A stretch of DNA of 63,841 nucleotides, counting the filler, from Stramenopiles sp. TOSAG23-3 (Eukaryota): NCBI GenBank assembly GCA_900128585.1. It is 13 parts of 13 records of this genome, joined end to end, with 100 filler letters (N's around TTAATTAATTAA, not from the genome) between each part and the next. Parts side by side here need not be neighbours in the genome. Positions count along the whole stretch, not along the records: positions 1 to 6,497 come from LT643305.1; positions 6,598 to 13,087 come from LT643306.1; positions 13,188 to 19,673 come from LT643307.1; positions 19,774 to 26,253 come from LT643308.1; positions 26,354 to 32,833 come from LT643309.1; positions 32,934 to 39,410 come from LT643310.1; positions 39,511 to 45,986 come from LT643311.1; positions 46,087 to 52,558 come from LT643312.1; 5 more parts are not named here. One strand, 5' to 3'. Position numbers and translations under genes: made by a program. Positions 2,292-52,545 of the stretch are shown piece after piece. The notes below the pieces were generated by a model, which was given only the letters and a program-made list of their open reading frames with translations, was not told the DNA's origin and ran no database searches. Position 1 is the stretch's first letter; each line of letters opens with the position of its first letter.

Positions 2292-2318
2292 AAAAACAAG
2301 AAAATTGGCTGTTATTTA
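2292..2318 (+). repeat. 3'-intergenic element A, copy 1
   Basis: AAAAACAAGAAAATTGGCTGTTATTTA between convergent genes; flanked by direct repeat CTATTTGTTTAAAA. Confidence 0.85.
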
Positions 2319-2435
2319 CCTATTTGTTTAAAACTCTAAATTCTACGTTCTACGTAGAACTCTCTTTTCCCATCCCCCTCTCTACCTCTATAAATATTAT
2401 ATCTCTAAATTTTAACCTCGCCGCTTCTCTCGTCT

Positions 2436-3878
2436 CTACAGCTGCCCGTTGGACGTCGGCTGGAGCAACGTTTGCTCTAGGAAATCGTTGACAAAAGTAC
2501 GCCGGGGGTCGTTGATCAGGACAAACTCTTGGAACTCCCGCAGCCGCTCGGCGCCGTACTTTTCCTCCAAATCCTTCCCAGAGGCCAGGAAGACTTTCCC
2601 GAAATGGGGCACCGCATTGTACGTTCCCATCAGGATCTGTTCCACGTCCTTCAGCACCGCGGCCACCTTCGCCGGGTCCTTCTTCCACGTAAAATGGAAC
2701 CCCATCGTCGACCCGAGCAGCCCCTGGGGCGACATCGTGAAATGGTCCGAGCCGATAAACCGCAGCTCCGAGACCAAGAGGACGTCCGCGATGCGCGGCG
2801 ACCCCGACGCGTACTTGAACATATCGTGCAGCGCGCCTAGGTACCGGGCGATCGGTACAAAGTACTCGGACTGAAGCTCGTCCCCTTTGCTCGGGGTCGC
2901 CCCCATCAAAAAGTGGGGGAGCTCGACGTACGATGGCCCGTGCCCCGGGGGGCCGCTGCACGAGGCCTCCGCGTCCAACCCCGGCAGCGGGTGGACCTTC
3001 ACCGTGCTCGCGGGCTGGTCGAACAGGGTCGGGCACTCGAACGAATCGTCCACCTCGTCGGTCCCTTTTCGGCCCTTTGACAATTTGTACTTTGCCCAGA
3101 AACTCGTAAGCATCTCCTTCCCGATGCTCGACGTCGACCAGGTCGTAAAGATGCTGAACGAGTACGCCGTCGACACGGCCCGTTCGAAATCGTTGCGGAG
3201 AAGGACCTCCGAGGGAAGGTCCGTGTAAATGCACTGCTGGATGTCGAACGCCGGGGAGATGTCCAGCTCGATCTCCACGACCACGCCCACCAGGCCGAAC
3301 GACACCACCGCGTGGTTGAACTCTGGCATTCCCCGAAAGAACTCTTTCGTCGTCCCGTCCGATCGGACGACCTTGACGCGCGTCACCTGAGAGGCGAGGT
3401 TCCCGCTGAACTGGCCAGACCCGTGCGTCCCCGTCATGATCGCCCCCCCGACGGTCACGTGCGGCAACGACGCCATGTTGTACACCGCCATGTTGCGCTC
3501 CCGCAAGTACACCCCCAGGTCCCCGTACGTGATCCCGGGCTGCACCACGACACGCTCCCCTCGGCAGCACTTCAACACGCTGTTCAAGTTCTCCGTCGAA
3601 ATGTACGCCCCTTCGTCGTACGGGACGGACGGAGAAATGCGCGTTATGTTGTTGAACGAGTGCTTCGTCCCGACCACCCGGACCTTTCGGTACTGGGCCA
3701 AGATCGAGACCACTTCGTCGACGGTGGAAGGGTTGAATATTTTGTGCTCGTACGCGACGGTGCCTGCCCAGTTCTGGGGGTGAGGCCCGTTCCCGCCCAA
3801 AGCAGCGCACGCCGCGTGGTGGACCAAAAGAAGGAGCAGCGCCCCGACGCTCTGGCGGGGAATGGTCCCAACGCGCAT
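2436..3878 (-). CDS. FAD-linked alditol/xylitol oxidase-like protein (VAO/ALO family) with signal peptide
   Basis: NWAG start of the catalytic domain, VVGTKHSFN (covalent-FAD His), NMASLPHVTVGGAIMTGTHGSG, ELQSEYFVP, HFTWK, PHFGK; N-terminal ALLLLLVHHAACA. Confidence 0.85.
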   Translation of the reverse strand: MRVGTIPRQSVGALLLLLVHHAACAALGGNGPHPQNWAGTVAYEHKIFNPSTVDEVVSILAQYRKVRVVGTKHSFNNITRISPSVPYDEGAYISTENLNSVLKCCRGERVVVQPGITYGDLGVYLRERNMAVYNMASLPHVTVGGAIMTGTHGSGQFSGNLASQVTRVKVVRSDGTTKEFFRGMPEFNHAVVSFGLVGVVVEIELDISPAFDIQQCIYTDLPSEVLLRNDFERAVSTAYSFSIFTTWSTSSIGKEMLTSFWAKYKLSKGRKGTDEVDDSFECPTLFDQPASTVKVHPLPGLDAEASCSGPPGHGPSYVELPHFLMGATPSKGDELQSEYFVPIARYLGALHDMFKYASGSPRIADVLLVSELRFIGSDHFTMSPQGLLGSTMGFHFTWKKDPAKVAAVLKDVEQILMGTYNAVPHFGKVFLASGKDLEEKYGAERLREFQEFVLINDPRRTFVNDFLEQTLLQPTSNGQL

Positions 3879-4252
3879 GGTGAGAATATCCGTTGGGTTT
3901 CTATGTGATGGATGCGCTGAGGAGATGATGGTCTAAGATGGTCGGTGGTGGGGATGATGATGTATGTGCGAAGAGGGTGTGTGGATATGGTGTTGGATTC
4001 TGATGTTTTCAATTGGATTGATTTAAAGATGGGTTTGGTATATATATATTATTATCATAATTTTGTATTTTTTTTTGTATAATAAAATATTATTATTATT
4101 TTTTATTATTATTGTTATATAATAGTCTTCTAGTTAGTAGTTATTATATTATATTATTATTCTCTATTATTATTATATTATTAGACGACGACACGACGAC
4201 TAACTAATGAAGAAGAAGAAAGGAATTGAAATTAAAATAAGAAAAAAGTTAA

Positions 4253-51548: not shown

Positions 51549-52116
51549 CCAGCTGCGAGAAAAAAAAATTTGCCGAACGTGTCAACGCACCACTGTGGTT
51601 TATGTCAAATATATGAAACCACTTTTACCAATATCCCACGATTTGAGTTTGTTAAATAATGATCCAAATGTTTATTTACGTATTCTTAGTTGATTCTGTC
51701 AGTCTTCAACATCTCGAACATACAAATCAATTATTATTTTTTTAGGTCGGCAGTGGTGGTATGAAAAGAAGAAATAATAATTATATATAAAAAAAAAGCT
51801 TTGTTGTTTTTTATTATTATTATTTTTTATTTATTAATTTATTACTCGGTCTTCTTCTTCTTCATCTTCTCTTTTGAATTTCATTGTTGTTGCTTTAATA
51901 GTCGTCTAGTCTATAGTATATCTTCTTCTTTTTACCCTCTCCTAACAAAATTAAATTCGTAAAAAATACCTCATAATACCTGCGTACTATTACAATAAAT
52001 AAATAAATAAATGCGAAATAACAAAAATATAATAAAACTGTCATTCAAGTAAGCGTTTCTCTTCTGAAGTATCATAGTCTATTGAGCGGCCCAAGGGCAG
52101 CGAAGATCTTGCTTTG

Positions 52117-52476
52117 ATGATTCCGCCACCCCCTCCAGATGGACCAACAATGGAACTCGAAATTGCACGCAAGAGAGCGAAGAAGAAATGGGATCAGTTG
52201 GACGCGGATGGCAATGGCGTCTTGGAAGGGGACGAATTGAATGGGCTAGCCGAATGGGTTTGGACTGCTTTTCACCCAGGTGGGAAACCAATAAGCGCTC
52301 GTGAAAAGGCAAAGATGACGAGAAAATTGAGCAAACGAATTGCTCAAACGGGGCAGATGACATTTGATGACTTTCAGGTGTGGTTCACGAAGACTTGTGC
52401 GGAAATAGAATCTTTCCGACAGTTACAAGCGAAACATGGGGGTAAAAGAAAAAGTGTCAAAATGAGTAAAAAATGA
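52117..52476 (+). CDS. Small EF-hand protein
   Basis: WDQLDADGNGVLEGDEL loop; degenerate second hand GQMTFDDFQVWF. Confidence 0.75.
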   Translation: MIPPPPPDGPTMELEIARKRAKKKWDQLDADGNGVLEGDELNGLAEWVWTAFHPGGKPISAREKAKMTRKLSKRIAQTGQMTFDDFQVWFTKTCAEIESFRQLQAKHGGKRKSVKMSKK

Positions 52477-52500
52477 AGGGGGCGCCACATATCAGTCATT

Positions 52501-52545
52501 AAAAACAAGAAAATTGGCTGTTATTTATAAGTAATTAAATTTAGC
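52501..52545 (+). repeat. 3'-intergenic element A, copy 7
   Basis: AAAAACAAGAAAATTGGCTGTTATTTATAAGTAATTAAATTTAGC, 25 bp after the stop at 52476. Confidence 0.9.

Follow-up and report, generated by a model that had tools for sequence, protein, structure and literature searches.

In SINE/LINE pairs with a common 3' tail (the 'stringent' mode of recognition), and in truncated non-LTR retroposons generally, differing bodies are joined to one conserved 3' block. A T-run in place of poly(A) is atypical for LINE-dependent elements, and some plant SINEs end in poly(T). Passages of one source on Penelope-like elements describe heavy 5' truncation, partial tandems and an insertion bias to AT-type microsatellites, and report that a unit can be surrounded by inverted repeats where a 5'-truncated copy lies next to it in the opposite orientation, that non-autonomous derivatives match autonomous ones at the 3' end only, and that some clades are without hammerhead ribozymes (PMC8557442). 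In the compact protist genome of Leishmania, according to the parts of a second source drawn on here, SIDER1 and SIDER2 are hundreds to thousands of short degenerate retroposons located almost exclusively in 3' UTRs, and SIDER2 has an experimentally shown effect on mRNA stability (PMC2323293).

Here we analysed a stretch of 63,841 nucleotides (filler included) from Stramenopiles sp. TOSAG23-3 (GCA_900128585.1), referred to as the window, which consists of 13 separate contigs joined by N44-TTAATTAATTAA-N44 spacers. An earlier note had described in it a 45-bp non-coding motif just past the 3' ends of genes. We conclude that this motif is probably the conserved 3' terminus of a high-copy non-autonomous retroposon family, named H here, and that H is a known sort of element with an unusual genomic niche. 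With this reading the apparent 'genome-wide 3'-end code' becomes a mobile-element story. Full-text literature searches turned up no account of H, and none of a stramenopile retroposon restricted to convergent gaps; the repeat collections Repbase and Dfam lay outside these searches.

Copies of H in the window

The window and 100 shuffles of it were scanned with the 20-mer AAGAAAATTGGCTGTTATTT, allowing up to three mismatches. Matches were found at 2298+, 21576-, 23735+, 24001-, 36823+ and 52507+, that is, six observed against 0.01 expected, and none of the 100 shuffles reached six. The seven copies of the earlier note are borne out at their positions, since six of them match the 20-mer and the seventh (30861-) is genuine, though degenerate. 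They also lie, as had been noted, on five unrelated contigs (contigs 1, 5, 6 and 8 with one copy each and contig 4 with three). The sense strand of H is the reverse complement of the consensus given in that note and reads ...AAATAACAGCCAATTTTCTTG, followed by a T-run. The copies of H, and those of a second family, E, are listed below.

2296..2319, minus strand: copy 1 of H, a 24-bp 3'-terminal stub (unit of 23 in the direct-repeat test) whose sense strand ends ...CAGCCAATTTTCTTGT, in the convergent gap 1971-2435
2282-2295 and 2320-2333: perfect 14-bp direct repeat CTATTTGTTTAAAA bracketing the stub of copy 1
11270..11309, plus strand: single E copy, about 95 nt past the stop (11176) of ORF 6668-11176(+)
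21549..21602, plus strand: copy 2 of H, B-type body, about 50 bp, 5'-truncated, ending ...CAGCCAATTTTCTTG at 21596; in the tandem gap 21402-21868, 148 nt past the stop of a Ras/ankyrin ORF
21539-21548 and 21603-21612: 10-bp direct repeat AAAATTATAT of copy 2
23735..23790, minus strand: copy 3 of H, D-type body, with a degenerate terminus; homology covers 23736-23788 and other copies diverge past 23786; it starts about 20 nt past the stop (23716) of the LRR ORF 21869-23716(+)
23945..24025, plus strand: copy 4 of H, A-type body, ending ...AAATAACAGCCAATTTTCTTGTTTT at 24025, with homology over 23941-24051; about 55 nt past the stop of the NEMP-family ORF 24080-25993(-)
30840..30883, plus strand: copy 5 of H, degenerate, directly behind an E copy
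30803-30839, plus strand: the E copy in front of copy 5; both lie in the convergent gap 30794-31076
36818..36864, minus strand: copy 6 of H, about 47 bp, with homology over 36816-36864; it starts 50 nt past the stop (36767) of a Cfap43-like ORF and lies 165-186 nt from an enolase stop (37029)
52498..52558, minus strand: copy 7 of H, B-type body, with homology over 52488-52558, continuing into the contig end; it starts 25 nt past the stop of the 120-aa ORF 52114-52476(+)
53204..53355, plus strand: E array of three tandem 5'-truncated ends, ...ATAATTTG plus T6-11, in the convergent gap 53150-53452
53194-53203 and 53356-53365: 10-bp direct repeat ACATAAATGT of the E array

Copies 3 and 4 form a pair with their 3' ends pointing outward. 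Because copy 7 follows the stop of the 120-aa ORF by 25 nt, the statement that every copy lies 20-330 bp past a stop codon stands for all of them. The length of about 45 bp in the earlier description holds for the block common to all subfamilies and not for the full element, as the shortest window copy, copy 1, has 24 bp and copy 4 has about 81 bp. The count of six of seven copies sense to a flanking gene is uninformative as evidence, since a copy between convergent genes is always sense to one of the two, whichever way it points.

Two features might suggest an assembly, adapter or amplification artefact: the contigs that make up the window are short, and copy 7 is at the end of one of them. 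However, the motif occurs with the same flanks in many independent assemblies, contig 4 is present in runs of 12 studies, and the motif lies inside contigs and between intact genes; contig breaks at copies are expected from a high-copy repeat. An artefact is thus scarcely conceivable.

One constant end and many bodies

A metagenome scan with the 17-mer of the motif gave at least 131 loci, which may pool several related species. The sense strand of H ends in ...TTAATTTTAATTACTTAAATAACAGCCAATTTTCTTG with a short T-run after it, and carries AAATAA about 15 nt before the end. Among the matches listed, the upstream AAACAAG is found in 73 of 133 distinct copies, and with an indel in about 20 more (counted by eye). 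Conservation stops sharply about 10-13 nt past the core on one side only. On the opposite (5') side, homology fades at a different point in each copy, in A, B and C bodies alike, and single-ended copies are the majority of H. At least four body types (subfamilies A-D) carry the one common tail, and the bodies are related to each other by deeper homology. Within subfamilies, bodies are about as conserved (0.86-0.98) as the head outside the ascertained core (0.87-0.99), a comparison in which truncation and the ascertainment on the core are confounding factors. H therefore has the constant 3' end and variable 5' truncation of a retroposon, with a sharp edge on one side and duplication-bracketed units of 19-332 bp.

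In these features H resembles SINE/LINE pairs and truncated non-LTR retroposons: differing bodies with one conserved 3' block of about 45 nt, a constant 3' end with variable 5' truncation, and 9-15-bp duplications at AT-rich sites. Unlike them, H and E have as their tail a homopolymer of T (1-5 in H, 6-11 in E) instead of poly(A) or a microsatellite or other simple repeat. H also differs in that no pol III-type head, tail stem-loop or partner LINE near the copies was found. In the window, ARAGORN found no tRNA and Rfam gave no match at the gathering score, and in 20 loci (E <=0.1) Rfam gave just two sub-threshold miRNA-like hits. The window and these 20 loci showed neither the tRNA/5S/7SL-like head of a classical SINE, the copies being without defined full-length 5' ends, nor a hammerhead ribozyme match. 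RNAalifold predicted no pairs in the tail across 28 copies.

Subfamilies A, B and C contain small Ser-rich ORF remnants that read toward the tail. The Ser-rich ORF matched no Pfam family and gave no usable ESM Atlas hit, and a phmmer search against 1.84 billion representatives returned 67 hits, all of them fragments of 45-266 aa save two weak long ones. In viral contigs there were 15 exact hits of the 17-mer, none with the family flanks. Pfam was run on 101 of the 117 ORFs within 1.5 kb of copies; of the 16 left out, 14 come from loci judged to be chance hits (L004, L011, L026, L036, L050 and L065), and the others are L002:2542-3015 and L031:3-449. The 101 scanned ORFs are ordinary host genes with their C-terminal domains toward the element. 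No RVT, endonuclease or GIY-YIG domain was found in them or in the window ORFs.

A single strongly conserved end and bodies with captured-looking ORF fragments could also be expected of an element that is copied and pasted at the DNA level, whether of the HUH type (Helitron or Replitron) or by another one-ended mechanism; its enzyme would then recognise the motif as the end of the element. Helitrons, to our knowledge, make no target duplications, unlike H, and the scanned ORFs near copies include no Rep/helicase ORF. Replitrons do occur in stramenopiles, and one family has variable-length duplications and a 'fuzzy' end, as stated in excerpts of PMC10288648. In the same excerpts both termini of Replitrons are defined and carry short direct terminal repeats, and Replitron-1 is the only family with duplications (PMC10288648). 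In contrast, the far end of H is truncated anywhere from 19 to 332 bp. We consider an HUH-type or similar DNA-level origin very improbable.

Target-site duplications and arrays

For each copy we determined the longest direct repeat between the 26 nt past CTTG and the 400 nt upstream, with shuffled pairing as the control. Among the matches listed and the window, a direct repeat of at least 10 bp was found in 23 of 90 H copies, against 5.5% in the shuffled control (binomial p 4.5e-10), and one of at least 11 bp in 15 of 90, against 3.3%. The duplications of H start 0-6 nt past CTTG, right after the T-run, and vary in length from 9 to 15 bp; the units that they bracket are 19-332 bp long and have their 5' junctions at differing places within the A, B and C bodies. 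In the window, the duplication is 14 bp long at copy 1 and 10 bp long at copy 2. Several of the hits in H are low-complexity or element-derived, leaving about 12 clean ones among the 90 after curation by eye, and about three quarters of H copies and five sixths of E copies have no duplication of at least 10 bp. An earlier and stricter test (k = 10, at least three G/C, units of at least 30 bp) gave a weak result, 5/72 against 1/72 in the control. Family E is an independent replicate of the H result, with duplications of at least 10 bp in 10 of 60 copies against 2.7% in the control. Duplications also accompany nested insertions. In L030 an E copy lies inside an H copy, with a 12-bp duplication made of H sequence, and in L049 an A copy with a 15-bp duplication is inserted into an older, oppositely oriented copy.

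Neighbouring heads no more than 600 bp apart were tandem in 34 cases among the matches listed, had their 3' ends outward in 18 and had them inward in 4 (binomial p = 0.004 for 18 against 4), so that the tandem and the outward arrangement are in excess. Tandem neighbours are often separated by duplications of their own (L009, L016), which favours repeated hits on one site over one complex insertion. The 18 pairs with 3' ends outward, 50-566 bp apart, face inward like the two ends of a MITE, a non-autonomous cut-and-paste DNA transposon of which the motif would be a 45-55-bp terminal inverted repeat; L049 resembles one such unit of 329 bp, with inverted ends of 55 bp, and in the window a pair of 280 bp is made by copies 3 and 4. 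However, most copies are single-ended, with the other end variably truncated, and the duplications bracket single-ended units and run from 9 to 15 bp. Taken as whole units, just one of the 18 pairs (L017) has a shared flanking duplication; no fixed length is common to the pairs, and the lengths match the shuffled control. The right 'TIR' of L049, the best such unit, is the older copy split by the insertion, and transposase is absent from the scanned ORFs near copies. A MITE is thus a highly unlikely identity for the element. Taken together, the constant 3' end, the variable 5' break and the duplications in H and E are the footprint of target-primed reverse transcription, and not that of a transposon with terminal inverted repeats.

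We propose that reverse transcription of an RNA ending in the H tail would start at a nick in AT-rich DNA, the target, with which the T-run of the RNA would pair. Synthesis would often halt early, so that copies would lack their 5' parts and measure from 19 to over 330 bp, and target-site duplications of 9-15 bp would be left around each truncated copy. Repeated hits on the same sites would build the tandem arrays and the inverted pairs with 3' ends outward. The need for the enzyme to recognise the tail would hold the tail constant as the bodies diverge. As far as the sequences allow us to infer, H would move through an RNA intermediate, and the enzyme moving it would be LINE-type or Penelope-like.

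Penelope-like elements of the Naiad/Chlamys type, as portrayed in the passages available, resemble H in their partial tandem and inverted truncated arrangements (34 tandem, and 18 outward against 4 inward, in H). H differs from them in that no RT/GIY-YIG ORF was found near copies, no hammerhead match was obtained and a 'tail' extension of 30-40 bp was not seen; in H, moreover, tandem neighbours in many cases carry their own separating duplications (L009, L016). Because some clades are described in those passages as having no ribozyme, the absence of a hammerhead does not exclude this class.

Among the sampled loci and the window we saw no pair of filled and empty alleles. No window-to-locus match of at least 120 bp was found at E <1e-20, and locus-to-locus matches were just the same contigs or the repeat itself. 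For contig 4, none of the joints listed skips a whole copy; DNA contigs break at the repeats.

Location at gene 3' ends and in RNA

The copies of H are concentrated behind genes. Among the matches listed, 117 of the ORF ends facing a copy are 3' ends and 20 are 5' ends. For strict members with ORFs on both sides, again among the matches listed, 37 gaps are convergent, 7 tandem and none divergent, with one copy inside an ORF and 69 copies unclassed. In the window (ORFs of at least 150 aa), three of the 7 convergent gaps contain an exact or near-exact head, or four if the degenerate copy is counted, as do 1 of 6 tandem and 0 of 2 divergent gaps, and each convergent gap longer than 130 bp contains an H or E copy. 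AT-richness was considered as the cause of this niche and rejected, as in the small sample of the window the AT content (0.53-0.72) is alike across all three gap types.

RNA contigs of host genes extend into the element. Two of them run from the NEMP-family gene into copy 4 (X15 record 16, 24009-26111; X18 record 20, 24000-24350), and other RNA contigs, of 604-4608 nt, have the element 0-90 nt from a contig end. These are assembled contigs, whose ends do not mark RNA ends. Some continue through the constant end into the flank, and among those listed there is no poly(A) loose end.

The extreme preference of the copies for gene 3' ends and for convergent gaps, the host-gene RNA contigs that reach into the head or end near the element, and AAATAA close to the sense-strand end would all suit a signal of the host, that is, a motif that is primarily a poly(A)/termination, 3'-UTR regulatory or protein-binding element and is kept by selection. 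On the other hand, both orientations are found (25 copies sense and 12 antisense to the nearest gene among the matches listed, a count with a geometric bias, as the body reaches out on one side). Stubs of 19-24 bp, multi-copy tandem and inverted arrays and nested insertions with duplications also speak against a host signal, as do the family-specific bodies with ORF remnants, about as conserved as the head outside the core, and the RNA contigs that read through the constant end. A host-selected signal is therefore very unlikely, and the long poly(A)/termination signal offered in the earlier note is unsupported as the primary nature of the element. For the second suggestion of that note, an origin or insulator site, the evidence speaks neither way. 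The third, a tiny mobile repeat that targets terminators, fared better: the mobile family, the target-site duplications, the truncated copies and the location of nearly all copies at gene 3' ends agree with it, and active targeting is a candidate only.

For the retroposon family H, the niche in convergent gaps could come from active targeting or, the genome being compact, from purifying selection against insertions into promoters. Because RNA contigs extend into the element, some copies may, judging by these contigs, have a secondary, co-opted role in 3' UTRs. H resembles the SIDER elements, as the excerpts describe them, in its copies past stop codons and within host-gene RNA contigs; it differs in that its host has ordinary monocistronic-looking gene pairs and a convergent-gap bias, and the two have no sequence relation. 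By analogy only, H can be compared with bacterial REP/BIME and MITE-like intergenic mosaics, which likewise consist of short repeat modules in either orientation that gather behind convergent genes and are transcribed within 3' ends; the host of H is a eukaryote, H has no palindromic stem-loop, and its footprint is duplication and truncation. It is a tentative idea, and on balance a doubtful one, that H and E actively home to the termination zones between convergent genes, or that copies have been co-opted in the manner of SIDERs as shared 3'-UTR/terminator modules. We know of no description of such 'safe-haven' homing to convergent-gene termination zones for retroelements. Inverted pairs between convergent genes could make both transcripts complementary and so give double-stranded RNA.

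A compact, intron-poor marine protist genome with thousands of retroposon stubs in the gaps between convergent genes would be a clean natural case of how mobile elements persist where genes are dense, be it through targeting or through selection. It is also a case for asking whether copies turn into shared 3'-UTR/terminator parts, as SIDERs do in Leishmania; were co-option true, a large share of the genes of this organism would end in the same sequence.

The copy number of H is in the thousands. In DNA run X8, the depth summed over contigs reaches 29505 at position 21577 and 11725 at position 23998, compared with about 4.5 on unique sequence, and X10 is similar. The H family accounts for the fragmentation of assemblies from this lineage into contigs a few kb long, and its conserved tail is a specific metagenome marker for the lineage.

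The motif and the repeats that carry it

The repeated motif is probably the conserved 3' end shared by an abundant family of retroposons (H), which has a sister family (E) and is confined to gene 3' ends. A search of the window with the 20-mer core of the motif, allowing up to 3 mismatches, found six matches against 0.01 expected, and a seventh, degenerate copy was seen in alignment. Stop codons precede all 7/7 copies, with copy 7 lying 25 nt past the end of a 120-aa ORF. The earlier note had described a conserved element just 3' of genes, and these results bear out that observation.

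Metagenome contigs scanned for an exact 17-mer gave at least 131 loci. Among the matches listed, about 35-40 were chance matches in unrelated contigs, and the remaining ones had the same AAACAAG upstream and the same AAGTAATTAAA downstream as the copies in the window. Past the common 45 nt, the copies extend in at least four ways (bodies A-D), of which A, B and D are interrelated through indels.

Body types of H copies in the window
Copies 2 and 7: B-type body
Copy 3: D-type body
Copy 4: A-type body

Bodies A, B and C hold remnants of one small Ser-rich ORF read toward the motif. This ORF matched no Pfam family, and phmmer against 1.84 billion representatives found 67 relatives, all fragments of 45-266 aa except two weak long matches. 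A multi-copy Ser/Asp-rich small ORF (L015:486-1160(+), L041:1403-1825(-); proteins P0121-P0187; about 200-270 aa when complete) lies directly upstream of the shared tail. Its protein has repeated hydrophobic-then-SSDDD stretches and a conserved end, ...DRQRAP..L.RCLE...SE.SDEEVDYGS..., had no match in the ESM Atlas or Pfam, and may be encoded by the element. Some 50 nt ahead of the 3' end, the B-type bodies at L113, L033, L014 and L075 contain a telomere-like TTAGGG unit, once or twice; in L113 there are two, placed consecutively.

Polarity, truncation and duplications

On one side, conservation of H stops abruptly 10-13 nt past the core; on the opposite side the end point differs from copy to copy. 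We took as the sense strand the one with the motif as 3' end (...AAATAACAGCCAATTTTCTTG followed by a T-run). For each H copy, the 26 nt following CTTG were compared with 400 nt of upstream sequence to find their longest exact repeat, with randomly paired flanks as control. Repeats of at least 10 bp were found in 23/90 copies against 5.5% in the control (binomial p 4.5e-10), and of at least 11 bp in 15/90 against 3.3% (binomial p 2.6e-7), the matches being partly low-complexity or element-derived and about 12 being clean by eye. The clean duplications begin 0-6 nt past CTTG; the units that they enclose measure 19-332 bp and have 5' junctions at varying points within the A, B or C bodies. In the window, copy 1 is a 24-bp stub flanked on both sides by a 14-bp repeat, and copy 2 is a unit of about 50 bp flanked by a 10-bp repeat.

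Target-primed reverse transcription characteristically leaves a constant 3' end, 5' truncation at random points and duplications of varying length; this combination fits neither cut-and-paste nor rolling-circle transposition. A MITE reading of 18 inward-facing pairs was dropped because shared flanking duplication was not above the shuffled control, L017 excepted; the neat "TIR" unit at L049 is an A copy that inserted into an older copy of opposite orientation, with 15 bp of the older copy's sequence duplicated. Replitrons, which are present in stramenopiles, do not fit H: PMC10288648 describes their termini as defined and as carrying short direct repeats.

Sister family E ends in ...ATAATTTG (also given as ...ACTATATAATTTG), then T6-11. 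One pattern counted 18 copies and a looser one 60 ends, and duplications were found at 10/60 against 2.7% in the control, the same test outcome as for H. E and H share the duplication-plus-truncation footprint and the location in convergent gaps. One E copy is nested inside H, where 12 bp of the H sequence are duplicated.

Copies of family E
11270-11309, +: E copy
30803-30839, +: E copy
53204-53355, +: array of three tandem E fragments, 10-bp repeat on both sides
Outside the window: loci such as L010, L030 and L042

Adjacent H heads no more than 600 bp apart were tandem in 34 cases, had their 3' ends outward in 18 (one of them in L098, a locus that resembles a chance match) and inward in 4 (p = 0.004, 18 vs 4). 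In several tandem neighbours (L009, L016), the copy's own duplication starts exactly at the preceding copy's 3' junction, so the same nick site was reused. According to PMC8557442, Penelope-like elements and their non-autonomous derivatives are heavily truncated, form partial tandems and have inverted truncated copies next to them, much as in the H arrays. In mechanism, H resembles both non-autonomous Penelope-like elements and SINE/LINE families with a common 3' tail; a tail-specific LINE enzyme priming at both nicks would give the same array picture. Of the 117 ORFs within 1.5 kb of copies, 101 were scanned, and neither these nor the window ORFs contained an RT, endonuclease, transposase or Rep domain. 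H had no match to hammerhead, tRNA, 5S or 7SL, and its tail had no conserved fold.

Convergent gaps, abundance and transcripts

Across the window and the loci, 117 ORF 3' ends and 20 5' ends face a copy, the 20 including chance-match loci. Among strict family members flanked on both sides by ORFs of at least 150 aa, convergent gaps hold 37, tandem gaps 7 and divergent gaps 0, and 1 is within an ORF; a further 69 were left unclassed, mostly owing to short flanks. Heads in the window occupy 3/7 convergent gaps (4/7 with the degenerate copy), 1/6 tandem and 0/2 divergent. If all 3' UTRs were equally acceptable, convergent and tandem counts should be similar. The three gap types in the window are equally AT-rich (small sample); therefore, the bias is real and base composition is not its explanation. 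Two explanations are on offer: selection that purges near-promoter insertions from this compact genome, or integration steered to termination zones. Relative to the nearest gene, 25 copies are sense and 12 antisense on the strand of the earlier note's consensus, a skew inflated by geometry because the body lies to one side of the head.

All five window convergent gaps longer than 130 bp (between ORFs of at least 150 aa) contain an H or E copy.

Copy-bearing convergent gaps
1971-2435
23717-24079
30794-31076
36768-37028
53150-53452

Of the two copy-free convergent gaps, one measures 127 bp and the other is an overlap (-128 bp); H and E may account for much of convergent-gap length.

Contig 4, which carries copies 2, 3 and 4, is present in runs of 12 studies, mainly marine metagenomes. 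On contigs of two DNA runs its unique sequence has a depth of about 4-6, and the summed depth rises to 29505 and 26429 at 21577 and to 11725 and 9565 at 23998, sums that take in any other repeat-carrying organism. The order of magnitude, thousands of copies, agrees with the seven copies in ~62 kb of window. Two RNA runs gave contigs of a NEMP-family gene that span coding sequence and 3' UTR, enter the head of copy 4 and end within the core (24009, 24000); further RNA contigs of 604-4608 nt have the element 0-90 nt from an end. H copies therefore belong to host transcripts; since RNA contigs break at repeats, they say nothing on transcript end sites, and DNA carry-over is possible.

Leishmania SIDERs occupy a similar niche: PMC2323293 places them almost exclusively in 3' UTRs and describes an action on mRNA stability. 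A literature search, with repeat databases outside its scope, found no description of H. Of greater interest are the possibilities that targeting accounts for the convergent-gap niche and that copies serve as common modules of gene 3' ends.

The window and its genes

The 63,841 bases comprise nine contigs of about 6.5 kb and four of about 1.08 kb (13 in all), joined by spacers of N44-TTAATTAATTAA-N44. The long ORFs are uninterrupted eukaryotic genes, among them a kinesin, a Cfap43-like flagellar protein, an RTEL1-type helicase, a bromodomain/WD40 protein, an enolase and an RPE65-type oxygenase. A search of the window against Rfam gave nothing at gathering score, and no tRNA was detected. Of the named relatives, those most similar to the enolase come from stramenopiles (Rhizochromulina 77%, diatoms ~72%), and on this single gene stramenopile is a reasonable but unproven label for the window; some relatives are fused forms of ~870 aa. 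Its ORF, 37029-38552(-), has ~65 additional residues ahead of the Enolase_N domain, which might represent a targeting peptide or stem from a false start upstream.

Overlaps between ORFs on one strand but in different frames occur at 19859-20326/20313-21401 (makorin-like and ankyrin/Ras) and at 39583-41565/41489-44536 (bromodomain and WD40), and each pair may be a single gene with a short intron or frameshift. Neither of the convergent ORFs 48659-50542(+) and 50415-51548(-) has a Pfam family; their 3' ends share 128 bp. Purine-rich (GAA/GGAA)n tracts occur at 12201-12259, 12469-12541, 44987-45142 and 60410-60560, and at several metagenome loci.
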